Source: Candidatus Komeilibacteria bacterium
Lineage (GTDB): Bacteria > Patescibacteriota > Patescibacteriia > UBA1558 > GWA2-36-10
Assembly (NCBI GenBank): GCA_018656065.1
Contig: JABHZY010000024.1
Coordinates: 75,980-139,979, forward strand
DNA length: 64,000 nt
Reading direction: 5' to 3'
Shown here one piece after another: positions 1,975 through 35,530 of this stretch (position 1 is its first letter; every line of letters starts with the position of its first letter). Under the pieces are notes generated by a model. That model was not told the DNA's origin. It saw only the letters and a program-made list of their open reading frames with translations, and made no database searches. A program made the position numbers and the translations under genes.

Positions 1975-3582
1975 TTATTTAATATAGTAGGGAAACAAAA
2001 CAAAAGTATTATCTATGGGAATATACAGATGATCTTCCATTTTTAAGTTCTCTACAAACATATCTGCATCTCTAGAGAATACATAAATAGTGTCTTCATC
2101 CAAATGCCCGGCCTGTATTTTTTCCATCTGATTAGCCAAATACTCGTCCTGCCCAACTATAGGTCTAGCAAAATGTCCATTGTTAACACTAATATCATTT
2201 TGCGCTGCAAACATAGCAAAAATCATATAATTTTTATGTGGAATAACTGGATAAAAGGCTAAATGTTGATAATTTTGGCTAGCTTCTTTAAATTCAGTTG
2301 TTAAAATTGTTTCTCTAAATACTTGCCCCTCAAAAGTTTGTCCTCTTTGTTTTAAAATACCACTTAGATCATAAAATTGAATACTTAAAGTAATTATCAA
2401 AATCAATAAAGCTAATTTATATTTTAAAGTTTTTAGAATATAAAAAGATGATAAAACTAAAATATAAAACACTGGCCAAAAAAATCTACCAGAAGATCTA
2501 AATAATCCCAATACATCTTCACTTAAAAATTTACCCAAAGGTAAAGAAAATAATATATAAAAATTAAAAGCTACAACATGACTAATAGAAATTAAAATTA
2601 ATATTAAAGAAATTAAAATTAATGGCCATTGTTTATAAATAAATTGTTTTAAATTAGTTTTTACAAAAAATTTAACAGCTGATGCAAATAATAAAAGTAA
2701 AGTACCAAAGCCCAAATAATTAAAGCCTTCTGCTTGATAACGAATAATACCTAAATCTGGCAAAATATTTGACCAGCCCATAGGATTGAATATTGCATTG
2801 AGATTCATAGAAAAATCTCCATAGCCGGGTGCTTTAGCATTACCTGTCAAAAACAAACCTAAAATATAAGCTAATAAAAAAATTAAACCTTCTTCAAAAA
2901 CTAAAAAATATAATGTATCTTTTAAACCTATTTTTTTTCTAACAAAATATAAATTTAATAAATCTACTAACAATAAAAATAAATTAATAAAAAGTAAGTA
3001 TGGATGTACTAATAAAGATACAACTAAAATTAAAGACCATTTTAGATAACTTATTTTATTATGTTGAGCTAAGATAGTCCACAAGGCAGCTAGTATTAAA
3101 AAATGACCGCCTAATGCAAAATGACCGCCCAGACGAAAAAGCATTATAGGACTAAGTATAAAAAATAAAGACGCTAGTATAGCTGCTAAACGTTTTTTAA
3201 AAAATAAAGAAGATAATAAGTATCCGAAAACGCCTTGTAATACAAAACAAATAGCTATCCATAAACCAAAATATTGAAATGTTTGTGGCAATATGAAACG
3301 GATTGATTTAAAAAATATAGCCAATATTGGAATAGAATCTGTAAAACTAACAGCTATTCCAAATGGATAAGCGTAATTTGAGGCTAGGCCAATTGGCCAT
3401 GACCAATCAGCAACACTATACATTATCCAACCAAGATATTGCTGGACTGGATCTGGTCCCGCAGTAAGCAACCAAGCATCATATCTAGGATCTAAAATCT
3501 CACCGTAAATTAAAAGAAAGGCTACAAAACCCAGAATAGCTACTATTGTTATACTCAAAATGTTTTTTTGTTTATCTGACAC
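1975..3582 (-). CDS. polytopic membrane protein, putative GT-C-like glycan transferase or polymerase (YfhO-like)
   Basis: 535 aa with more than 10 predicted TM helices and a C-terminal soluble domain. Sits in a glycosyltransferase locus. Product assignment is only by architecture. Confidence 0.4.
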   Translation of the reverse strand: MSDKQKNILSITIVAILGFVAFLLIYGEILDPRYDAWLLTAGPDPVQQYLGWIMYSVADWSWPIGLASNYAYPFGIAVSFTDSIPILAIFFKSIRFILPQTFQYFGLWIAICFVLQGVFGYLLSSLFFKKRLAAILASLFFILSPIMLFRLGGHFALGGHFLILAALWTILAQHNKISYLKWSLILVVSLLVHPYLLFINLFLLLVDLLNLYFVRKKIGLKDTLYFLVFEEGLIFLLAYILGLFLTGNAKAPGYGDFSMNLNAIFNPMGWSNILPDLGIIRYQAEGFNYLGFGTLLLLFASAVKFFVKTNLKQFIYKQWPLILISLILILISISHVVAFNFYILFSLPLGKFLSEDVLGLFRSSGRFFWPVFYILVLSSFYILKTLKYKLALLILIITLSIQFYDLSGILKQRGQTFEGQVFRETILTTEFKEASQNYQHLAFYPVIPHKNYMIFAMFAAQNDISVNNGHFARPIVGQDEYLANQMEKIQAGHLDEDTIYVFSRDADMFVENLKMEDHLYIPIDNTFVLFPYYIK

Positions 3583-4943: not shown

Positions 4944-6033
4944 TATCTAATTTTTTATAGATCTCCAAAATCTCTTCTGACATCTTACGCCATGAATATT
5001 TATCTATTTGTTTATAGCCTGTTCTGATTAAATTATTACGCAAGTCATTATCATTTATAATCTCAAACATTTTCTTTTTAAGATCTTCTCTGTCCTTAGG
5101 ATTAAAATATAATGCGCTGTGTCCTAATACTTCTGGTAAAGAGCTAGAATCACTAGATAAAACTGGCAAGCCATAACTCATAGCTTCTAATGGTGGTAAG
5201 CCAAAGCCTTCATATAAAGATGGAAAAATATAAGCTCTAGCATTTTTATAATAACTATCTAACTTATCATCTGCTACGTAACCAGTAAAAATAACATTAG
5301 GACAATCAATGTCTTTAGCTAATTTTTCATAAAAATAATTTTTTTGTCCTACTAATATTAAATAATATTCTGAATGTTTCTGCCAAAATTCTTTAAAAAC
5401 TTCTATCAAAAATTCTAAATTTTTATGAGGATAAGCATTGCCAATATAAAGAAAATAGTTTTGTGGTAAATTAAAGGGCTCTTTTTGGCTACTAAAATAT
5501 GTACTAACTCCTTCATAAATCACCTCAATTTTTTTAGCCTCTCTATCTTCTAATTGGAAATATTCTTTGATATCTTTAGCTGTAAATTTAGAAACTGCTA
5601 TTATTTTTTTAGAATTTTTAACAGCATTTCTAATCACTTGTTTATAAAACCAATACTTTATCTTAAACCAAAAGGTATTTAAAGTACTAGCTTTACGACT
5701 TGGAAATTTAGTCATTATTAAATCATGGATGGTTACTACAAAATTACCACTATAAAAAATTGGCACGTTAAAATGTGGAAAATGGACTAGATCTGGCTTT
5801 AATTTATATAAAACCCAAGGTAATACAATTTGCTCTTTTATTCCATACCAATGACAGTCACAAATTTTAATTTCAAAATTATCCGGCAAATTAATTTCAG
5901 GAGTTTCTTTAAAAAGTAAAATATAATGATTTGATTTATCTAATTTTTTAAGTTCACTTAAAAACTCTTGATTATAACGACCAAGTCCACCGGGTTTTGT
6001 ACCAAAAATTCTAAAATCAATTACAATTCTCAT
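4936..6033 (-). CDS. GT4-family glycosyltransferase
   Basis: C-terminal EGFGLPPLEAMSYGLPVLSS motif (GT-B, retaining GT4 signature). Confidence 0.8.
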   Translation of the reverse strand: MRIVIDFRIFGTKPGGLGRYNQEFLSELKKLDKSNHYILLFKETPEINLPDNFEIKICDCHWYGIKEQIVLPWVLYKLKPDLVHFPHFNVPIFYSGNFVVTIHDLIMTKFPSRKASTLNTFWFKIKYWFYKQVIRNAVKNSKKIIAVSKFTAKDIKEYFQLEDREAKKIEVIYEGVSTYFSSQKEPFNLPQNYFLYIGNAYPHKNLEFLIEVFKEFWQKHSEYYLILVGQKNYFYEKLAKDIDCPNVIFTGYVADDKLDSYYKNARAYIFPSLYEGFGLPPLEAMSYGLPVLSSDSSSLPEVLGHSALYFNPKDREDLKKKMFEIINDNDLRNNLIRTGYKQIDKYSWRKMSEEILEIYKKLDNV

Positions 6034-7151
6034 TTTTTATAGCTATTAAATAAATCTAACATTTGTTGAGCTTGGTTTTCCCACTTAGGAACCTTAAAAC
6101 TACTAGCCGATTTTTTAAACTGTTTAATTAATTTTTCATCCTCAGTTAAAAACTTCAAAGCTTTATATATATCACTAATGTTATAAGGATCAACGTATAA
6201 AGCCTGTTGTTTGTTCATTTCCGGAAGGGCTGTTTTATAACTTACTATTACTGGTGTTTTATAAGAAATTGCTTCCATTGGTGGAAAACCAAAGCCTTCA
6301 TATAAAGAGGGCCAAATTAAACCCTGACTCATATAATACAAAGCATCTTTAGCTGGAGATTCTACATAATTTAAATAATGAATAAAAGGTCTTTTTTTAA
6401 TTTTTTGTAACAATTTTCTATAAACCCAACCCTTCTTACCAACTACTACCAAATGCACATCTGGAGATTCTAAATGATATCTATCAAAAGCTTTGATGAT
6501 ACTCTCTATATTTTTACGAGGCTCAAGTGTGCCTAAATAAATAAAAAACTTATCTGGAAGATTAAAATCTTTTAGTATATCTCTAGCTCTATCCTCATTC
6601 ATTGGAATAGAATTAATACCAGGATTAATTATAGTAATTTTATCTTCAGTTAAAGGAAAAAAACGCATTAAATCTCTTTTAGTATTGCCAGAAACAGCTA
6701 TAATTTTATCAGCCTGTCTAACCAATTTTTCTACATTTACCATTTTATGCCAATATCTTCTTCTTAAAGAATAAAATTCTCTACTATGTAAAAAAGATAA
6801 ATCATGAACTGTCAAAATCATTGGATATTTTTTTGATAAATTACAAAAATTAATATTAGGCATCCAAAAAAGATCTATGTCTTTAAAAAAATTTTCACAA
6901 ATATTAGAATTAATTCCCAATAATAAATTTAAATTCAAAACTTTATTAGCAATTGGAATATGAAAATGTTTAACATTTGATTGATTAAAATCTAATTGCA
7001 TATAAGGGTCCTTCTTCAAGCCCGAACTGAATAAATAATAATTATTTTCTTTATCCAATTCTAAAAGATGAGTAATAGCATAATAAATATATTTGCCAAT
7101 ACCTGTTAACTTTTTATTTCCTAAAGCTCTGATGTCTATACCTATATTCAT
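6030..7151 (-). CDS. GT4-family glycosyltransferase
   Basis: EGFGFPPMEAISYKTPVIVS motif; overlaps neighbours by 4 nt (operon). Confidence 0.8.
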   Translation of the reverse strand: MNIGIDIRALGNKKLTGIGKYIYYAITHLLELDKENNYYLFSSGLKKDPYMQLDFNQSNVKHFHIPIANKVLNLNLLLGINSNICENFFKDIDLFWMPNINFCNLSKKYPMILTVHDLSFLHSREFYSLRRRYWHKMVNVEKLVRQADKIIAVSGNTKRDLMRFFPLTEDKITIINPGINSIPMNEDRARDILKDFNLPDKFFIYLGTLEPRKNIESIIKAFDRYHLESPDVHLVVVGKKGWVYRKLLQKIKKRPFIHYLNYVESPAKDALYYMSQGLIWPSLYEGFGFPPMEAISYKTPVIVSYKTALPEMNKQQALYVDPYNISDIYKALKFLTEDEKLIKQFKKSASSFKVPKWENQAQQMLDLFNSYKK

Positions 7152-9716: not shown

Positions 9717-10060
9717 GGTTTAAATAGACCGAGATGATTGCTAATTATAGCGTAAAGCTATAATTAGAGGAAAGTCCGAACACCACAAAAAAGATAGTTG
9801 GTAACGCCAACCGTTTCTAATGCAAATTAGGGATAGGACAAGTGCAACAGAGAATATTCCTTCCTTCGGGATAAGGGTGAAAATGTCAGATAATTAGCTG
9901 ACACGTCAACATGGTGACATGTAGAAAGAGGTAAACTTCTATCCGGTGTAAGGCCAAATAGGCCCTTCGGGGCGGGTAGGCTGCTTGAGATTACAAGCAA
10001 TTGTAATCCTAGATAGATGATCATCCTAGACAGAATTCGGCTTATGAGGTCTATTTAAGC
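9717..10060 (+). ncRNA. rnpB: RNase P RNA (bacterial type)
   Basis: Conserved P4 halves GAGGAAAGUCCG and ACAGAAUUCGGCUUAU, AGGGUGAAA element, P3 hairpin (ctaattatagc/gctataattag), and a 13/14-nt P1 pairing between 9717-9730 and 10047-10060. Confidence 0.8.
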
Positions 10061-32321: not shown

Positions 32322-32350
32322 TTGACAAAATAACTAAAATATGATATAAT
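32322..32350 (+). promoter_or_regulatory. consensus sigma70 promoter (TTGACA-N17-TATAAT)
   Basis: TTGACA 32322-32327, TATAAT 32345-32350; drives the first gene of the GC-rich cassette. Confidence 0.6.
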
Positions 32351-32410
32351 AATATATCTTCAATTGGAATTCGCCGATGAAGATATACCCTGTCAAATGG
32401 AGCAAACAAT

Positions 32411-32872
32411 ATGAATACGATGAAAATCGTGCTCTCCCTGATTATCATGCTGATTTTCACGGGCGTCGTCCTGGCTGATGACGAATCGCTCAGGCCCGAA
32501 CTGAACAACGCCGTCCAGCAGCTGGAAAGCAACTGGAACAGCATGACCCCCTACCAGCGTGGTGATCAAGAGCAGGAAATCGCCAGATTGGTCCTACTGC
32601 CAAAGGACTATATCGGAACCATGTTCAGGTACCACTACCTGTACACCGATACGGCCTACTTCTCCGAATGCCCCGAGGAACGGAGAGATAGGATGTGGAA
32701 CTATATCCTTGAACGGCAGAGGTGGGATACGCATGATATGCAGGTGTTGGCCAACAACTTCTACATTGAAGGCTACCACTTCGAAGCTAGGTTGTTGTTC
32801 AACCACAACCTCGATAGGCTCCAACCTATCAATCCCAACCTCGAACCCGAGGACACCTTGGAACTAGAGTAG
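32411..32872 (+). CDS. secreted protein of the GC-rich cassette, unknown function
   Basis: Signal peptide MNTMKIVLSLIIMLIFTGVVLADD. GC-rich codon usage unlike the host. Confidence 0.5.
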   Translation: MNTMKIVLSLIIMLIFTGVVLADDESLRPELNNAVQQLESNWNSMTPYQRGDQEQEIARLVLLPKDYIGTMFRYHYLYTDTAYFSECPEERRDRMWNYILERQRWDTHDMQVLANNFYIEGYHFEARLLFNHNLDRLQPINPNLEPEDTLELE

Positions 32873-32900
32873 CAGCCACCAACGCTGCTTCACCCTCTCG

Positions 32901-32930
32901 GATCCCGACCGGAAATCGGGATCTTTTATT
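32901..32930 (+). terminator. rho-independent terminator
   Basis: GATCCCGA/TCGGGATC 8-bp stem plus T-run. Confidence 0.6.
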
Positions 32931-32947
32931 TGTTCTCAGACTTACTA

Positions 32948-32976
32948 TTGACAAAAATAAATATACATGCTAGTAT
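32948..32976 (+). promoter_or_regulatory. sigma70-like promoter (TTGACA-N17-TAGTAT)
   Basis: Same architecture as the tRNA-Gln promoter at 35407. Confidence 0.5.
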
Positions 32977-33025
32977 GACTTGAAACATTAAAATTTCATT
33001 CAATGAAGCTTTGAAGAACTGTCTG

Positions 33026-33071
33026 TATTTGGACGCTTGGACAGTTTGGAGCTAGTAGCGTAACCGGCATT
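33026..33071 (+). repeat. structured leader repeat, copy 1
   Basis: Sequence tatttggacgcttggacagtttggagctagtagcgtaaccggcatt. Contains TTGGAC-gc-TTGGAC direct half-sites. Flanking aactgtc/gacagtt arms form a hairpin. Confidence 0.5.
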
Positions 33072-33195
33072 GTGTAATGAATCTCAACAAATGAGCTTGA
33101 TTTACTTAAAATGCCTGGATGGGTATTTTTTTGTATTTTAAGTTCTTTATACAACATAATAGGAAAAACATCAGTGAGGCAATGAAAAACCGCCT

Positions 33196-33285
33196 ATATT
33201 TGGACGCTTGCACCCGGTAAATTATTCTTAGGAATAAATAAACCGAGGTCAAGGGTGGTTTGGAGCTAGTAGCGTAACCGGCATT
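33196..33285 (+). repeat. structured leader repeat, copy 2 (with a 47-nt stem-loop insertion caccc...gggtg)
   Basis: Same 5' (tatttggacgcttg) and 3' (gtttggagctagtagcgtaaccggcatt) blocks as copy 1. Confidence 0.5.
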
Positions 33286-33310
33286 TAGATGCTTGTTATA
33301 TTTAGTTAAG

Positions 33311-33333
33311 ACGCCTTCTCTGAGGCGTTTTTG
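33311..33333 (+). terminator. intrinsic terminator / attenuator immediately upstream of the REC gene
   Basis: acgcct-tctctg-aggcgt hairpin plus TTTTT, 28 nt before ATG 33361. Confidence 0.55.
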
Positions 33334-33360
33334 TGTTTCCCCCAACAGGAGGTGCCTGCA

Positions 33361-33771
33361 ATGGCCCGAGTTTTCATTTTTGACAACGATCCGACCATGG
33401 CTCTGACTATGGCCTTTGGTCTGGAATCTGAAGGGCACGAAGTCCTGACCAACATCGAGACCAACGAATCTGGCGGACATCACGCTGAGCTGAACACTAC
33501 CAAGGTGATTCGCAAAATGCTCGAGTGGAAACCGGTCCCCGATGTAATTATCATCGAGTGCTTGGAAGTCGACAGCGAACGTTTCATGAGCATCCTCCAG
33601 GGTGCTGGTATGCAGCACCTGACGGTCCTAGCGATGTCACATCGCTATAAGAACAACACTCGCCTGCAACGACTGATGAGTGAGTACGGCGCCTTCTGCA
33701 TGCCGAAACCACTCAACGTCAATAATCTTGTGGAATATGTTCAGGAGCTCTCGACAAGTCCGGTTGGCTGA
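33361..33771 (+). CDS. receiver-only response regulator (CheY-like REC domain, no output domain)
   Basis: RBS GGAGG. N-terminal ARVFIFDNDP and further REC-like motifs. The track ORF 33331-33771 shares this frame. Confidence 0.65.
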   Translation: MARVFIFDNDPTMALTMAFGLESEGHEVLTNIETNESGGHHAELNTTKVIRKMLEWKPVPDVIIIECLEVDSERFMSILQGAGMQHLTVLAMSHRYKNNTRLQRLMSEYGAFCMPKPLNVNNLVEYVQELSTSPVG

Positions 33772-33836
33772 TTTAGCACAGCTTCTCTGCAAAGCTGGGG
33801 GGAATTCCCTAGACGAACGGAGAGGAGGTGATAATT

Positions 33837-33959
33837 ATGTTCAACGCTCTGACTTCGAGGATGATGAAGGGTAAGGGAGCCGTCGTGGTGTGCACGCTGT
33901 GTGTCATCGGCTTCCAGACCCTGAATCTGATTGATCTGTTCTGGTGGTTGCGCAAGTAA
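33837..33959 (+). CDS. micro-ORF A (40 aa), hydrophobic, C-terminal LIDLFWWLRK
   Basis: Strong RBS GGAGAGGAGGTG 6 nt upstream of the start. Paralog of micro-ORF B. Conserved hairpin 33984-34001 follows the stop. Confidence 0.4.
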   Translation: MFNALTSRMMKGKGAVVVCTLCVIGFQTLNLIDLFWWLRK

Positions 33960-34133
33960 CCTCTATGAAGTGTTAACCCCTGTGTCACTCTAAGGAGTGG
34001 CCAACCGGGAGCCTGTCAAAATGCTAATCCCCCCAGCGATTGGCAGGCCCCCACCCTCCTTACCTATAGATTAACTAATATAACTTCTATAGCTGGGAAC
34101 ATATATCTCAAGCTTATAAGAGGAGGTTACACC

Positions 34134-34199
34134 ATGGACTTTGTTTATATCGTAACGGGCTTGTCCCTGATCGATTTGTGGTGGTGGTTACGCAAGTAA
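34134..34199 (+). CDS. micro-ORF B (21 aa), C-terminal LIDLWWWLRK with three consecutive Trp codons
   Basis: RBS AGGAGG. Same C-terminal motif and same downstream hairpin (34223-34240) as micro-ORF A. Confidence 0.4.
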   Translation: MDFVYIVTGLSLIDLWWWLRK

Positions 34200-34299
34200 C
34201 CTAGTTGAGCACTAACTCCTGCGTCACTCTAAGGAGTGACCAACCGGGGATTTGTCGAATAGTCACGTTCCCAGTTATCGACGAATCCCCATCCCCGAC

Positions 34300-34322
34300 C
34301 TTACTCACATGGTGTGAGTAAG
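34300..34322. promoter_or_regulatory. perfect 10-bp inverted repeat (CTTACTCACA-tgg-TGTGAGTAAG), candidate operator
   Basis: Lies 28 nt upstream of the lipoprotein ATG. No T-run follows, so it is not a terminator. Confidence 0.4.
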
Positions 34323-34349
34323 TAACTCCACCTCACAGGAGGAAAAATC

Positions 34350-35057
34350 ATGAAGAAGTACGCATTTCTGACCCTGAGTATCCTGGCGCTTCTGGCCCTG
34401 GGTGCTTGCAGTGACACCGACAAGATCACCGATGTCCAATCGGACAACAACAACCAGCCGACCATTACGGCCGGCGAAATCCACACCGAGTTCCTCGAAC
34501 TGCTCTACGCCGAGAATGACTTCGCCAAGCGCGAGAAGTCAAGCCAGGTCTCGAGCGCCACTACGACGGCCAACGAGATTCTGATTCGTCACGGCCTGAA
34601 GCCGATGTCGGAAGCCGATGTCGAAACGGAACTCCAGCGGGGTCGCGAAATGGCTCAGATGGACCCTGTTCAGTTGATTGAGAGCATCTTGACTCCCGAA
34701 GAACTGATCTGGTGGGATCGTTTCTCTTGGGAAGCCAAAGTTTTCGACGCCAAGAAGGTCTACCGGCAACACTGCAACCTGTACGGTGCCCCTACCGAAG
34801 GCAGCATGCTGAGCAACCTGTTGGACATGAGCCTGTCCTCGGCCGAGTTTTGGGATGTCTACCGTGAAAAGGACATTCCGACTTACCAGAACCCCTACAT
34901 ACCGATGACCAAAAGCTGGCGCGGTGTGCTCCGTTTCGTGGTGGCCGTAGTCGTCGATGGTGGTGCAGGAGCAGCGTGTGCTGCTGGTGGCCCCATCGTA
35001 TCAGGTGTTGTTGGCGGCCTGGCTAGCGCCGGTGCTGACGGCATGATTTTCGACTAG
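34350..35057 (+). CDS. lipoprotein with Gly/Ala-rich hydrophobic C-terminal tail
   Basis: Lipobox LALGAC. C-terminal VVAVVVDGGAGAACAAGGPIVSGVVGGLASAGADG. GC-rich. Confidence 0.55.
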   Translation: MKKYAFLTLSILALLALGACSDTDKITDVQSDNNNQPTITAGEIHTEFLELLYAENDFAKREKSSQVSSATTTANEILIRHGLKPMSEADVETELQRGREMAQMDPVQLIESILTPEELIWWDRFSWEAKVFDAKKVYRQHCNLYGAPTEGSMLSNLLDMSLSSAEFWDVYREKDIPTYQNPYIPMTKSWRGVLRFVVAVVVDGGAGAACAAGGPIVSGVVGGLASAGADGMIFD

Positions 35058-35099
35058 CCACTCGCCTTCAGAGATTCTAACCTTAAACCCTTTAAGGGG

Positions 35100-35336
35100 G
35101 TGAATGCTATGCAGGATTACCTGTTAATCATTCTCTTTTGCATCATTGGTTCCGTCGTCGGTAACTTGGTGCTGAAGAATGATCGTTTTTCCCGTTTCTT
35201 AGGAATAGGCCTAGGATTGTCACCGGCATTTGCTATCATCGAGCATATGCCACTCCTCCTACTGGCCGCCCTGCTCTTCGGTCCGCTGCTTGCTTGGCGA
35301 CGACATCATGTTCGTTGTCAATCTAGCCCGACCTAG
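35100..35336 (+). CDS. small two-TM membrane protein (likely start ATG 35109)
   Basis: SD AAGGGGG 9 nt upstream of ATG 35109. Hydrophobic 70-75 aa. Confidence 0.4.
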   Translation: MNAMQDYLLIILFCIIGSVVGNLVLKNDRFSRFLGIGLGLSPAFAIIEHMPLLLLAALLFGPLLAWRRHHVRCQSSPT

Positions 35337-35355
35337 AGTAGGTCTCAAAGCCCAG

Positions 35356-35395
35356 AAGGACCCGTCACTGCATATGCACACGGGTCCTTTTCTCT
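35356..35395 (+). terminator. strong rho-independent terminator ending the GC-rich cassette
   Basis: 10-bp stem aaggacccgt/acgggtcctt plus T-run. Confidence 0.7.
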
Positions 35396-35406
35396 TATCT
35401 ATAATA

Positions 35407-35435
35407 TTGACAAATTGTCCAAAAAATAGTAGTAT
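35407..35435 (+). promoter_or_regulatory. tRNA-Gln promoter (TTGACA-N17-TAGTAT)
   Basis: TTGACA 35407-35412; -10 at 35430-35435. Lies 22 nt upstream of the tRNA. Confidence 0.5.
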
Positions 35436-35456
35436 ATTACTGCTTTTATTAAACCT

Positions 35457-35530
35457 TCGGAGATCGTCTAATGGTAGGACACCTGGTTTTGGTCCAGGCA
35501 ATCGGGGTTCGATCCCCTGTCTCCGAGCCA
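35457..35530 (+). tRNA. tRNA-Gln (anticodon UUG), CCA encoded
   Basis: Manual fold: acceptor TCGGAGA/TCTCCGA, D-arm GTCT/GGAC, anticodon stem CCTGG/CCAGG with loop TTTTGGT, T-arm CGGGG-TTCGATC-CCCTG, 3' GCCA; 74 nt. Confidence 0.75.

Follow-up and report, generated by a model that had tools for sequence, protein, structure and literature searches.

Judging from their conservation, the two Trp-rich micro-ORFs in the window (the whole 64,000-nucleotide stretch of DNA analyzed here) are real genes for a hydrophobic peptide of ∼21 residues, the last ten of which are near-constant across several bacterial phyla and phages. The conserved 3′ block that follows each of them is a two-hairpin RNA module. 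Our best guess for the peptide, read from its composition and gene neighborhood, is that it is a small membrane-embedded partner of signaling proteins. The two cassettes consist of the following elements.

33794-33803, + strand: 5′ box of cassette 1, GCTGGGGGGA, complementary at 10/10 positions to the hairpin 2 loop at 34028-34037 (pair I13)
33819-33830, + strand: RBS of micro-ORF 1, GGAGAGGAGGTG, read from the sequence, ending ∼7 nt before the ATG
33837-33959, + strand: micro-ORF 1, ATG at 33837 and TAA at 33959, 40 aa, MFNALTSRMMKGKGAVVVCTLCVIGFQTLNLIDLFWWLRK
33946-33961, + strand: small hairpin of cassette 1, GGTTGC-GCAA-GTAACC, enclosing the last three codons (Leu-Arg-Lys) and the stop of micro-ORF 1; visible in the sequence and recovered in the minimum-free-energy fold
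33984-34001, + strand: hairpin 1 of cassette 1, GTCACTC-TAAG-GAGTGGC, 7 bp with the loop TAAG
34007-34052, + strand: hairpin 2 of cassette 1, a 13-bp stem with one A-C mismatch and a 20-nt loop; no U-tract after it and no terminator called
34086-34100, + strand: 5′ box of cassette 2, TCTATAGCTGGGAAC, complementary to the hairpin 2 loop at 34267-34281 (pair I2)
34118-34127, + strand: RBS of micro-ORF 2, AAGAGGAGGT, read from the sequence, ending ∼7 nt before the ATG
34134-34199, + strand: micro-ORF 2, ATG at 34134 and TAA at 34199, 21 aa, MDFVYIVTGLSLIDLWWWLRK
34186-34201, + strand: small hairpin of cassette 2, GGTTAC-GCAA-GTAACC, enclosing the last three codons (Leu-Arg-Lys) and the stop of micro-ORF 2; visible in the sequence and recovered in the predicted fold
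34223-34240, + strand: hairpin 1 of cassette 2, GTCACTC-TAAG-GAGTGAC
34246-34290, + strand: hairpin 2 of cassette 2, a 13-bp stem GGGGATTTGTCGA / TCGACGAATCCCC (inverted-repeat pair I7), pairing with box 2 through loop positions 34267-34276; no U-tract after it

The original prediction described two Trp-rich micro-ORFs with strong RBSs and a shared LIDL(F/W)WWLRK-stop end, and this was confirmed on the sequence, with consecutive TGG codons (two in micro-ORF 1, three in micro-ORF 2) standing three codons before the stop. The cassettes are related by repeats at a spacing of 239-240 nt, one of 36 nt (33927-33962 and 34167-34202, 86% match) and one of 47 nt (33974-34020 and 34213-34259, 83% match). 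A codon-degenerate motif pattern allowing up to two mismatches matched only the two micro-ORF sites in the window, against an expectation of 0.02, and two matches were reached in 0/100 shuffles as a chance control. Micro-ORF 1 is a member of the LIDLFWWLRK family with an N-terminal extension and has close variants (P0015 and P0016); micro-ORF 2 has the length and layout typical of the 77 unique family peptides (compare MHDMYFVMGLALIDLFWWLRK in L021 and L101). Gene calls in the assemblies examined include the 40-aa copy only, and just in some of them, and a protein search with micro-ORF 1 as the query returned no matches beyond two near-identical short proteins. The arrangement of the locus recurs in at least ten independent metagenome assemblies, and it is therefore not an assembly artefact.

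The family was collected by a codon-degenerate scan with the pattern IDL[FW]WWL[RK][RK]-stop, which gave 73 loci in genome_contigs (species-representative genomes) and 16 in viral_contigs, where a rough information-content estimate puts the chance expectation at 2-3. Nearly all are ORFs of 19-22 codons with an RBS; 82 ORFs gave the 77 unique peptides, lengths of 22 and 21 aa being the commonest, and 68 have an ATG behind a purine-rich RBS. The layout is an N-terminal Met and an acidic residue, 8 to 10 hydrophobic residues, and a C-terminal G-L-(S/A)-L-I-D-L-F-W-W-L-R-K. Conservation extends to positions outside the scan pattern, with Gly at −13 in 48/79 sequences (using four codons), Leu at −12 in 68/79 (five codons) and Leu at −10 in 60/79, and the alternatives that the pattern allows are little used (F 74, W 5; R 75, K 4; K 64, R 14, H 1). 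When the Trp-Trp positions were left free, only Trp-Trp members were recovered, plus chance matches. Copy 1 of the window and L021 differ by synonymous changes only across the ten-residue tail and stop codon. Residues outside the pattern are thus conserved and codons vary freely, so the peptide itself is under selection; as judged from this codon variation, selection is shown to act on the peptide and not on the Trp codons as such. It had been argued that the duplication and the conserved 3′ structure speak for function, and the synonymous codon variation in a conserved peptide bears this out. A tblastn search with family peptides gave no match in GenBank phages and one non-significant match in plasmids (a search in which the low-complexity filter may hide matches), and a literature search on the peptide string found no paper with the peptide.

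The cassettes lie between a receiver gene and a lipoprotein gene, whose surroundings comprise the following features.

32948-32976, + strand: sigma-70-type promoter-like site, TTGACA-17-TAGTAT with TG, ahead of the riboswitches; a consensus match only
32995-33078, + strand: c-di-GMP-II riboswitch aptamer 1 (Rfam RF01786, 74.3 bits, above the gathering score of 53.5)
33166-33291, + strand: second c-di-GMP-II-like aptamer (RF01786, 49.7 bits, just under the gathering score of 53.5; E = 3e-9 in a local scan)
33308-33331, + strand: terminator-like hairpin with a T-run, from the terminator scan
33361-33771, + strand: gene for a single-domain receiver (CheY-like) of 136 aa, identified by a homolog profile against PDB receiver domains
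34300-34322, + strand: hairpin 3 in the leader of the lipoprotein gene, CTTACTCACA-TGG-TGTGAGTAAG (inverted-repeat pair I15)
34350-35057, + strand: lipoprotein gene, 235 aa, with a lipoprotein-type signal peptide ending in Cys (LLALGAC) and a Gly-rich hydrophobic C-terminus; no known family
35100-35336, + strand: small membrane-protein gene, 75-78 aa; such a gene follows the lipoprotein gene wherever the contig reaches that far

As a consensus match, the site at 32948-32976 probably marks where the transcription unit with the micro-ORFs begins. The second aptamer carries a 44-nt insertion in a loop, the tandem arrangement is also found in candidate-phyla-radiation (CPR) relatives, and the hairpin at 33308-33331 is the probable expression platform of the second riboswitch. 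A profile of ten receiver homologs (alignment A4) matches the CpxR, PhoB, and PleD receiver domains in the PDB (E = 2e-9 to 6e-8), and Pfam Response_reg matches four of the ten members; the window protein alone falls below Pfam significance and, in our own reading of the alignment, has Glu in place of the expected phospho-accepting Asp (..IIIECLEVD). Hairpin 3 is part of the lipoprotein gene and not of the micro-ORF cassette; L101, L020, L014, and L026 have a hairpin of different sequence at the same position. Homologs of the lipoprotein number only 14 among 5.8 billion protein clusters, and Pfam, NCBIfam, PHROGs, and PADLOC gave no match for the micro-ORF peptides, the lipoprotein, or the small membrane protein. 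An Rfam scan of the window region found riboswitches and tRNA only, a consensus scan of both cassettes (33555-34452) found no terminator-like or promoter-like site on either strand, and a literature search on c-di-GMP-II and CPR yielded nothing relevant. One transcript from the promoter at 32948 would run past two c-di-GMP-II riboswitches and cover the receiver gene, the two cassettes, and the genes for the lipoprotein and the small membrane protein; we take it to read through hairpin 2 solely because the U-tract is missing there.

In 56 of the 73 genome loci, the micro-ORF lies ∼160 nt downstream of a PDZ-GAF-SpoIIE phosphatase gene. At these phosphatase-linked loci it stands behind a GG-N10-GC, sigma-54-like promoter element and is the last cistron, an intrinsic terminator starting 12-20 nt after the stop codon and the next gene (e.g., crcB) being convergent, so that nothing is left downstream for the micro-ORF to regulate. 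The RBS of this type is predicted to pair with the I-D-L-F codons, a helix equivalent to the stop-codon hairpin of the window is also predicted, and an Rfam search of eight such loci found nothing at E values up to 0.1. Krumholzibacteria-like genomes carry the cassette without a riboswitch and with the sigma-54-like promoter instead, at one locus in each MAG, syntenic with the phosphatase gene. In CPR loci, as in the window, the micro-ORF comes after the receiver gene, 600-1200 nt downstream of tandem c-di-GMP-II riboswitches. In L085, the gene after the micro-ORF is convergent and the lipoprotein operon of that MAG is on another contig; in a related MAG (contigs JABHSK01), the micro-ORF cassette and the lipoprotein operon occupy separate contigs with their own riboswitches; and most lipoprotein homologs have no micro-ORF. 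Viral loci have no recurrent neighbor gene. How far the first hairpin lies from the stop codon varies between lineages, from 12 to 45 nt.

The conserved hairpin block originally placed 3′ of each micro-ORF, GTCACTC-TAAG-GAGTG(A/G)C, was recovered at 33984-34001 and 34223-34240, its start 23-24 nt past the stop codon in each cassette. The second, longer hairpin of each cassette was absent from the original prediction, as was the complementarity of its loop to an upstream box; its stems differ in sequence and the pairing is kept. Both hairpins are predicted in 13/13 blocks though the sequences differ. The covariation check proposed for the hairpin was run across relatives and revealed compensatory changes in both hairpins. 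Hairpin 1 changes on both sides in 7/7 pairs, and 19 of the 26 pairs in a curated arm alignment do so. In the same alignment 95.1% of cells are paired, a percentage inflated because the arms were picked from each sequence's own predicted fold, against 71.9% in shuffles (0/500 reach the observed value) and 42-52% in controls with the partner slid by 1-3 columns. A covariance model (R1) matches 33981-34058 at 91.9 bits and 34220-34296 at 86.3 bits and found the block in window-type cassettes only, with none in phosphatase-linked or viral loci; a looser RNA-block pattern gave three loci in viral contigs. In the metagenome collection, the pattern AGTGRCCAACYGGGR-N12-19-TCCCCCC recovered window-identical contigs, the contig of L021, two chance matches in high-GC DNA, and nothing else. 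The tails after the hairpin 2 copies of the window (CACCCTCCTTACC and ATCCCCGACCTTAC) lack the U-tract of a Rho-independent terminator, and no site was called there. A U-tract does follow hairpin 2 in L038, L055, L070, L099, and L078, so in these low-GC relatives hairpin 2 is the intrinsic terminator of the cassette.

The loop of hairpin 2 is complementary to the 5′ box, which sits ∼30 nt upstream of the start codon, ahead of the RBS. The box-loop duplex of cassette 1 has a predicted energy of −24.1 kcal/mol (z = −4.1 versus shuffled loops) and that of cassette 2 −17.9 kcal/mol (z = −4.6), pairings with the loops of other cassettes all being −14.6 or weaker; box 2 is unlike box 1 in sequence, and the loop of cassette 2 has changed to match. 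The duplex is present in 10 of the 12 cassettes, with lineage-specific sequences in copy 2 of the window, L038, L070, L099, and L103. It is absent in L011, L106, and all phosphatase-linked loci, where a comparison of the 5′ UTR with the terminator loop found no pairing (median z = 0.5, 1/51 below −2). Candidate features of the block that we dropped were a hidden RBS (TAAGGAG) in the loop of hairpin 1, where the loop is unconserved (CTTG in L101, TTCTC in L020); a short reading frame across the hairpin 2 loop (..LIPPAIG..), found in two sequences only and missing from copy 2; and an anti-RBS role of the C-rich tail behind hairpin 2, which the fold of cassette 1 shows and those of relatives do not.

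The original prediction held that an RNA block kept where the ORF is lost would make this an RNA element with incidental ORFs. Such blocks do occur (those of L020 and the first one in L078 lack an ORF, and the one in L011 has a decayed ORF), but the converse is far commoner, more than 70 loci having the ORF without this RNA block. ORF and block each occur alone and are therefore separable modules, the ORFs not being incidental; with amino acids conserved at variable synonymous sites and a start codon and RBS regularly present, we give the RNA-only explanation next to no credence. Equally far-fetched is a trpL-type attenuator, in which a shortage of charged tRNA-Trp would make ribosomes pause on the tandem Trp codons, switching the downstream hairpins and thereby lipoprotein expression. 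The micro-ORFs had been proposed as a Trp-sensing leader of the trpL or TnaC kind for the lipoprotein gene, and it holds that this gene, and not trp genes, lies downstream, no tryptophan genes being found in the neighborhood. A short ORF with a run of two or three Trp codons close to its end, followed by hairpins and then a gene, does resemble such a leader. The proposal is nevertheless not supported, as conservation covers the whole 10-12 residue tail across phyla, beyond the Trp codons, and the ORF is mostly the last cistron. Hairpin 1 starts too far downstream for a ribosome halted on the Trp codons to reach it, a search for conserved alternative pairing with the ORF or its Trp codons found none, and in place of a mutually exclusive antiterminator and terminator with a U-tract, the predicted folds keep both hairpins together and neither window hairpin has a U-tract. 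Where a cognate pathway operon would be expected, there are genes for a lipoprotein and a small membrane protein, and the lipoprotein homologs without a micro-ORF and the split contigs of the JABHSK01 MAG also speak against control of that gene. Nor does the peptide resemble TnaC, with its Trp, Asp, and C-terminal Pro at fixed spacing: the ..IDLFWWLRK end has no Pro, and its Asp and Trp are elsewhere. For scans of this kind, Trp codons stacked before a stop are insufficient to call an attenuator.

Two further explanations take the peptide as the active product. A type I toxin, that is, a membrane-damaging peptide whose mRNA is silenced by fold-back and checked by an antisense or other small RNA, is unlikely but has a number of features on its side. 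The peptide is 19-22 aa long, mostly hydrophobic, and basic at its C-terminus, and the cassette is duplicated in tandem in the window and in L103, has copies on viral contigs, and is distributed patchily across phyla. Fold-back would join the 5′ box to the 3′ loop in the window type, where this long-range 5′-3′ pairing covaries, and the RBS to the coding region in the phosphatase-linked type, as predicted for the I-D-L-F codons; hok, aapA1, and tisB mRNAs use such structures. Type I toxins usually diverge fast, whereas the present sequence is almost invariant across phyla, and the single phosphatase-syntenic locus of each Krumholzibacteria-like MAG looks vertically inherited, not selfish. Moreover, in the window and its CPR relatives the micro-ORF sits within, or at the end of, an operon that is under regulation, PADLOC and PHROGs gave no match, and the opposite strand of the window cassettes (33555-34452) has no sigma-70-like promoter in a consensus scan that cannot exclude one. 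We regard as rather improbable a mechanism in which the nascent peptide stalls the ribosome translating it at the stop codon, in the manner of TnaC or PepNL, with no requirement for Trp sensing, and so affects nearby RNA structure, mRNA stability, or termination. It would account for a conserved part that is exactly the last ten residues, which occupy the exit tunnel at termination, for a tail that always abuts the stop codon at a total length held to 19-22 aa, and for Trp-Trp being invariant in all members recovered, even with those two codons free in the pattern. The stop codon also lies within a small predicted hairpin, the phosphatase-linked terminator stem, 12-20 nt after the stop, is in reach of a terminating ribosome, and stop-codon arrest peptides are known down to 14 aa (PMC11890864). 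However, most loci have no same-strand downstream gene to control, the variable distance from the stop to the first hairpin fits poorly, and the hydrophobic N-terminal half, unneeded for an arrest motif, is also conserved in character. The sequence is unlike TnaC (the W-D-P spacing is missing) and unlike PepNL, which ends in Ile-Asp (PMC11890864). We would give similarly long odds to the broader idea that the LIDLFWWLRK tail is a near-universal ribosome-directed motif and the micro-ORF a portable module, one that keeps a ribosome waiting at its own stop and sets the fate of the transcript; if true, it would be used by several phyla and phages under c-di-GMP or sigma-54 control, and the box-loop closure and stop-codon hairpin would belong to the same switch. 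Compatible with this idea are the match between the conserved residues and those expected in the exit tunnel, the fixed length and placement against the stop, and the lack of an evident conserved protein partner.

We favor, at roughly even odds, a role for each micro-ORF as a self-contained cassette for a hydrophobic peptide of ∼21 residues that acts as a membrane-inserted partner or modulator of signaling or envelope proteins. Control of peptide production would fall to c-di-GMP in CPR bacteria and to sigma-54 in Krumholzibacteria-like bacteria, and box-loop pairing would tie both ends of the mini-mRNA together. The peptide would form a single short membrane-inserted helix, its Trp pair lying at the interface and its Arg-Lys end facing the cytoplasm, and serve there as a small partner or modulator of the signaling or envelope proteins produced with it. 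The neighbor varies (a membrane phosphatase, a soluble receiver domain, or nothing consistent in phages), so no single conserved partner is evident. Nine or ten residues kept nearly unchanged across phyla exceed what a plain membrane anchor would call for, a hint that the target is very conserved and could be the ribosome. Of the alternatives raised originally, small hydrophobic toxins or signaling peptides, the small hydrophobic peptide stood and is closer to the evidence than the Trp reading, whereas an exported signaling peptide did not, as there are no export genes and no signal sequence. A RiPP precursor was dropped together with it, RiPP modifying enzymes (radical SAM, cyclodehydratase, protease-transporter) being absent among the neighbors in the window, phosphatase-linked, and viral loci. 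A separate observation, which counts against a membrane partner, is that the hydrophobic stretch is short (∼15 residues) and has an Asp.

The micro-ORFs define an unannotated gene family of a size that gene callers skip; within the libraries searched, the peptide has no counterpart among families, RNA models, or papers. That the last nine or ten of its 21 residues are near-constant in Krumholzibacteria-like genomes, CPR bacteria, and phage contigs alike points to a very conserved target. The neighboring PP2C-type membrane phosphatase or receiver, together with sigma-54 or c-di-GMP control, ties the gene to envelope signaling in almost entirely uncultured lineages. The terminator-type hairpin, with a loop that pairs with a box ahead of the RBS and clear compensatory changes, is a compact example of end-to-end closure of an mRNA.

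Among known systems, c-di-GMP-II riboswitch regulons (RF01786) resemble the window and CPR operons in opening with one or two class II aptamers; here, the riboswitch is upstream control only, as Krumholzibacteria-like cassettes have a sigma-54-like promoter and no riboswitch. With trpL, TnaC, and PepNL (PMC11890864), the cassettes share a short ORF, Trp codons near the stop, an RNA structure after it, and a conserved C-terminal end; they differ in having mostly no regulated downstream gene, no tryptophan context, no terminator/antiterminator alternative over the ORF, and an unrelated peptide sequence. The likeness to hok/sok, aapA1/isoA1, and tisB/istR lies in the short hydrophobic peptide, the structured mRNA with long-range 5′-3′ pairing, and the tandem and mobile copies. 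Unlike those systems, the cassettes are conserved across phyla, syntenic, and placed inside a riboswitch-controlled operon, their 5′ partner pairs with a hairpin loop and not with the 3′ tail, and a consensus promoter scan found no antitoxin RNA or antisense promoter. MgrB, SafA, PmrR, AcrZ, and KdpF are examples of small membrane proteins acting as modulators of sensors or transporters. The window peptide has no sequence similarity to these as compared through family libraries only (no Pfam or NCBIfam match), is shorter than most at 21 residues, is far more conserved across phyla, and belongs to a family whose neighboring gene differs between lineages. What it has in common with them is the form of a tiny, single-helix hydrophobic peptide with its own RBS, encoded beside signaling or envelope genes and under a specific regulatory signal.

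The window carries two micro-ORFs, short genes that end in LIDL(F/W)WWLRK and a stop codon, between a receiver gene and a lipoprotein gene. The features of this region are:

32948-32976, promoter-like site upstream of the riboswitches
32995-33078, c-di-GMP-II riboswitch (74.3 bits)
33166-33291, second c-di-GMP-II aptamer (49.7 bits, just below threshold) with a 44-nt insertion
33308-33331, terminator-like hairpin after the second aptamer
33361-33771, receiver gene, directly after the riboswitch region and before the micro-ORFs
33837-33959, + strand, micro-ORF 1 (ATG to TAA), 40 aa, tail LIDLFWWLRK
34134-34199, + strand, micro-ORF 2 (ATG to TAA), 21 aa, tail LIDLWWWLRK
34350-35057, lipoprotein gene, 3' of both micro-ORFs
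following the lipoprotein gene, a gene for a membrane protein of 75-78 aa

The original prediction described the local elements correctly: both micro-ORFs have strong ribosome-binding sites (long, purine-rich, ending ~7 nt before the ATG), the 10-residue tail is shared, and the hairpin GTCACTC-TAAG-GAGTG(G/A)C is present in both copies (33984-34001 and 34223-34240). A repeat finder returned two repeat pairs in the window, 239-240 nt apart, one over the peptide tail and stop (36 nt, 86% identical) and one over the downstream block (47 nt, 83% identical), and a codon-degenerate search for the tail with up to 2 mismatches matched only these two sites in 64 kb (0.02 expected). At least 10 independent metagenome assemblies show the same gene order, which rules out an assembly artefact. 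Neither terminators nor promoters were called, even as look-alike sites, on either strand of 33555-34452, and a single transcription unit from 32948 to ~35336 would follow from this. The receiver gene alone had no Pfam match; a profile of ten homologues, four of which match Pfam Response_reg, finds the receiver domains of CpxR, PhoB and PleD at E = 2e-9 to 6e-8. Neither the lipoprotein nor the 75-78 aa membrane protein matched a known family in Pfam or NCBIfam.

The G+C content is ~30% in the window and ~50% in an island at 32.4-35.4 kb (32400-35400), where the coding parts are GC-rich and the promoters, riboswitches and spacers are AT-rich and host-like. The lipoprotein coding sequence is GC-richer in relatives from the candidate phyla radiation (CPR) too (L014 and L026; L-numbers denote related loci on other contigs), and the composition suggests that the island came from GC-richer bacteria and had its control regions rewired afterwards. 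A GC-rich gene at 32411-32872 (within 32322-32924) encodes a 153-aa secreted protein of no family; the gene is a separate unit, with a perfect promoter (TTGACA-17-TATAAT, 32322-32350) ahead of it and a terminator of its own at 32900-32924. The island lies on the 5' side of a tRNA-Gln gene (35457-35530, in the region 35407-35530, with its own promoter-like site), which marks its right edge. Elsewhere in the window, bacterial class A RNase P RNA was found at 9722-10060 (215.8 bits).

We scanned genomes (one per species) and viral contigs with the pattern ATH GAY YTN TKB TGG TGG YTN MRN MRN TRR and obtained 73 and 16 loci, respectively, with two or three chance matches expected in the genome set from a rough information-content estimate. 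L059, L082, L039, L065 and L110/L116 are chance matches; the others are short ORFs with a ribosome-binding site. Of 82 ORFs, 68 start with ATG; the 77 unique peptides are most commonly 22 or 21 aa long and come from sources labelled Krumholzibacteriia, 'Fibrobacteraceae', Eisenbacteria, Parcubacteria, Roizmanbacteria and unclassified MAGs, as well as two low-GC MAGs labelled 'Gammaproteobacteria'. At positions outside the scan pattern, 48 of 79 sequences share a Gly at -13 (four codons used), 68 share a Leu at -12 (five codons) and 60 a Leu at -10. The F/W position holds F in 74 and W in 5, with C and L, which the pattern also permits, unused, and the basic positions hold R (75) or K (4), then K (64), R (14) or H (1). 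A viral scan with both Trp positions left free returned seven known members, all Trp-Trp, and four chance matches. Residues kept while codons vary, the few permitted alternatives used and the invariant Trp-Trp argue for selection on the amino acid sequence, and at the sequence level give firm grounds for regarding the micro-ORFs as encoding a conserved peptide. The family has no match in Pfam, NCBIfam, PHROGs or PADLOC, and a text search of our paper library did not find the peptide string.

At 56 of the 73 genome loci (phosphatase-linked loci) the micro-ORF is found ~160 nt past the end of a same-strand gene whose ~850-aa product combines PDZ, GAF and SpoIIE (PP2C phosphatase) domains with many membrane helices. 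Just past the stop of this gene there is a conserved GG-N10-GC element (..CCGGnCCnnTTCTTGC..; 21 of 21 loci checked), a sigma-54-like sequence that fits the -24/-12 pattern. A classic terminator stands 12-20 nt past the micro-ORF stop and the next gene is usually convergent (crcB, for example), so that a leader would have no target there. When these loci are aligned (L035-L107, A6) and folded as a consensus, the I-D-L-F codons (UGAUCGAUCUCUUU) are predicted to base-pair to the G-rich ribosome-binding site (GGGGGGAUCGG). Such pairing would explain why the AT-ending codons GAT, CTC and TTT are kept in very GC-rich genomes; most of its pairs are invariant, and compensatory change in only two pairs weakly suggests that it may form.

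The CPR and similar low-GC loci L038, L055, L070, L085, L099 and L103 have the micro-ORF after a receiver gene, with one or two c-di-GMP-II riboswitches 600-1200 nt upstream; in L085 the gene next after the micro-ORF is convergent. Riboswitches of the c-di-GMP-II class arranged in tandem are a repeated feature of CPR and CPR-like genomes (the window, L014, L026, L038, L055, L070, L085 and L103), where they precede either the receiver and micro-ORF unit or the lipoprotein operon. L085 and L014 belong to one MAG (contig prefix JABHSK01), in which the micro-ORF cassette (a 5' box, ribosome-binding site, micro-ORF and 3' RNA block of hairpins 1 and 2) and the lipoprotein operon are on different contigs, each behind its own riboswitches; judged from gene arrangement, the window has simply joined these two units. 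L085 also encodes, at 2459-3097 and ~1.3 kb from the cassette, an HD-domain protein (Pfam HD, HDOD and HD_5) that may be a c-di-GMP phosphodiesterase of the HD-GYP type. A second tandem micro-ORF pair, with the tails ..VIDLFWWLRK and ..LLDLFWWLRK and one hairpin block per ORF, lies at 4900-5250 of L103, with another c-di-GMP-II aptamer just downstream (5392-5476). Viral contigs showed no recurrent neighbour of the micro-ORF. L104 and L118 share their length and match position (6866-6895) and are apparently one 43,833-bp contig. One entry assigns it to a 'Parcubacteria group' MAG (64% G+C) and the other, from IMG/VR, to a virus, so that phage DNA may lie behind some of the MAG matches; the micro-ORF on this contig precedes a further ORF for a small membrane protein.

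Homologs of the lipoprotein are rare, only 14 among 5.8 billion protein clusters, and their contigs were retrieved and the upstream regions compared side by side. L021/L022 (50% G+C) has the order receiver gene, micro-ORF (MHDMYFVMGLALIDLFWWLRK), RNA block, lipoprotein gene, and its nucleotide differences from window copy 1 in the ten-residue tail and stop are all synonymous. L020 has the RNA block directly after the receiver gene's stop, with no micro-ORF, and L011 (60% G+C) has, ahead of the block, a 32-aa ORF similar to micro-ORF 1 in its N-terminal half but without the Trp-rich tail. The CPR relatives L014 and L026-L029 have tandem riboswitches immediately 5' of the lipoprotein gene and no receiver gene, micro-ORF or RNA block. 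Micro-ORF and block are both missing from L015 and L023, where a gene for a sigma-54 activator and a promoter sequence of the sigma-54 type lie nearby; in GC-rich bacteria (L015, L016 and L018) the homologous operons have such promoters, with activator genes nearby, in place of the riboswitches. In a six-frame scan of the lipoprotein loci, the peptide motif was confined to the window's lineage and L021, so the micro-ORF is not a general feature of this operon. A hairpin at 34300-34322, ~20 nt 5' of the lipoprotein gene's ribosome-binding site and also present in L101, L020, L014 and L026, is conserved in position and pairing but not in sequence (CTTACTCACA/TGTGAGTAAG, GTCTACTAGCA/TGCCAGTAGAC, CTACCTGG/CCTAGGTAG, CTGTCCGGA/TCCGGACAG) and probably belongs to the leader of the lipoprotein gene.

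RNAfold predicts two hairpins in all 13 RNA blocks collected despite differing arms, those of hairpin 1 being GUCACUC/GAGUGAC in the window, GCCACUA/UAGUGGC in L101, GUUACCU/AGGUAGC in L038, GUAAUCA/UGAUUAC in L070 and AGCGUCA/UGAUGCU in L103. The box, which in most cassettes has its 3' end 28-35 nt ahead of the start codon, finds its complement in the loop of hairpin 2: GCUGGGGGGA with UCCCCCCAGC in window copy 1, AGCUGGGAAC with GUUCCCAGUU in copy 2, GGCUGGAGG with CCUCUGGCC in L038, GGCUGGGG with CCCCGGCC in L070, GGCCGGGG with CCCUGGCC in L099 and CAGUGUG with CACACUG in L103. The duplex energy against shuffled loops gives z of -2.1 to -4.6 in 8 of 12 cassettes, and the copy 2 box finds a better partner in its own loop than in any other cassette's. 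Box-loop pairing was not found in L011, L106 or the phosphatase-linked loci. Where present, it would tie the ends of the mini-mRNA together, which may bear on stability, on control of translation or on how efficiently transcription terminates; the two window cassettes fold more stably than shuffles (z = -3.3 and -3.4).

For a pair count, arms were excised by hand and joined by constant linkers for gapless alignment. Standard pairs fill 95.1% of cells; shuffles give 71.9%, and none of 500 gets as high. Choosing arms from each sequence's own fold inflates the first figure but not the variety of pair types. Covariation, which the original prediction proposed to look for in the hairpin, is there, with changes on both sides in 19 of 26 pairs (hairpin 1, 7/7; hairpin 2, 6/9; box-loop, 6/10), and sliding the partner by 1-3 columns lowers pairing to 42-52%. 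A U-tract after hairpin 2 in L038, L055, L070, L099 and L078 makes it an intrinsic terminator there; a terminator scan did not call window hairpin 2 as one. The RNA block is, with good confidence, a structured, terminator-derived module with a long-range contact. A covariance model of both hairpins found it only in the window's cassette type, and an exact-pattern scan of the metagenome collection gave no new instances. In L078, hairpin 2 and a small extra hairpin directly follow the receiver gene's stop (~1150-1240) and the full cassette (box, micro-ORF, block) comes after them, so the RNA module can stand at the end of a different cistron. CAAC(C)GGGG occurs at the 5' foot of a GC-rich hairpin after the micro-ORF in viral L108, L114, L119 and L121 and in window hairpin 2 (34002-34010 and 34241-34249), which hints that a terminator-type hairpin may travel with the ORF. 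The refuting case named in the original prediction, an RNA element with incidental ORFs, has a mixed answer: the block does occur without an ORF (L020) or without the Trp tail (L011), but the peptide is conserved and the ORFs are not incidental. Peptide ORF and RNA block are clearly separable.

We turn to function. A Trp-sensing leader peptide controlling the lipoprotein gene, as originally proposed, is not borne out: the whole peptide is conserved, Trp genes are absent and there is usually no downstream gene. A trpL-type attenuator is contradicted, with no alternative hairpin overlapping the ORF and no U-tract in the window. Neither the peptide ORF nor the RNA block, we are confident, senses tryptophan for the lipoprotein gene. 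Both window copies contain a 6-bp hairpin with a GCAA loop (33946-33961 and 34186-34201) in which the codons for the final Trp and Leu pair with a stretch made up of the Lys codon, the stop and the next two bases; L101 and L038 could form a similar helix, one is predicted for the phosphatase-linked loci, and L055, L070 and L085 cannot form it. This location of the stop codon would suit TnaC- or PepNL-like termination arrest by the nascent peptide, as would invariant residues that always abut the stop and are those nearest the peptidyl-transferase centre; yet there is usually no gene to regulate and the peptide is unrelated in sequence to known arrest peptides, and we regard arrest as unlikely.

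A type I toxin is a fair fit on some counts, namely the peptide type, the fold-back mRNA and the tandem and phage copies, but is unlikely overall, as invariance across phyla and syntenic single copies do not fit. A promoter scan found no antisense promoter at the window cassettes. We prefer to see the peptide as sitting in the membrane, where it would be a small partner of signalling or envelope proteins expressed with it, a reading based on composition, neighbourhood and regulated expression to which we give roughly an even chance. Small hydrophobic proteins and fold-back mRNAs are of known kinds. Within Pfam, NCBIfam, PHROGs, PADLOC, Rfam 15 and our literature library, nothing matches this peptide family, how strongly it is conserved, the regulatory contexts in which it occurs or the contact between box and terminator loop.
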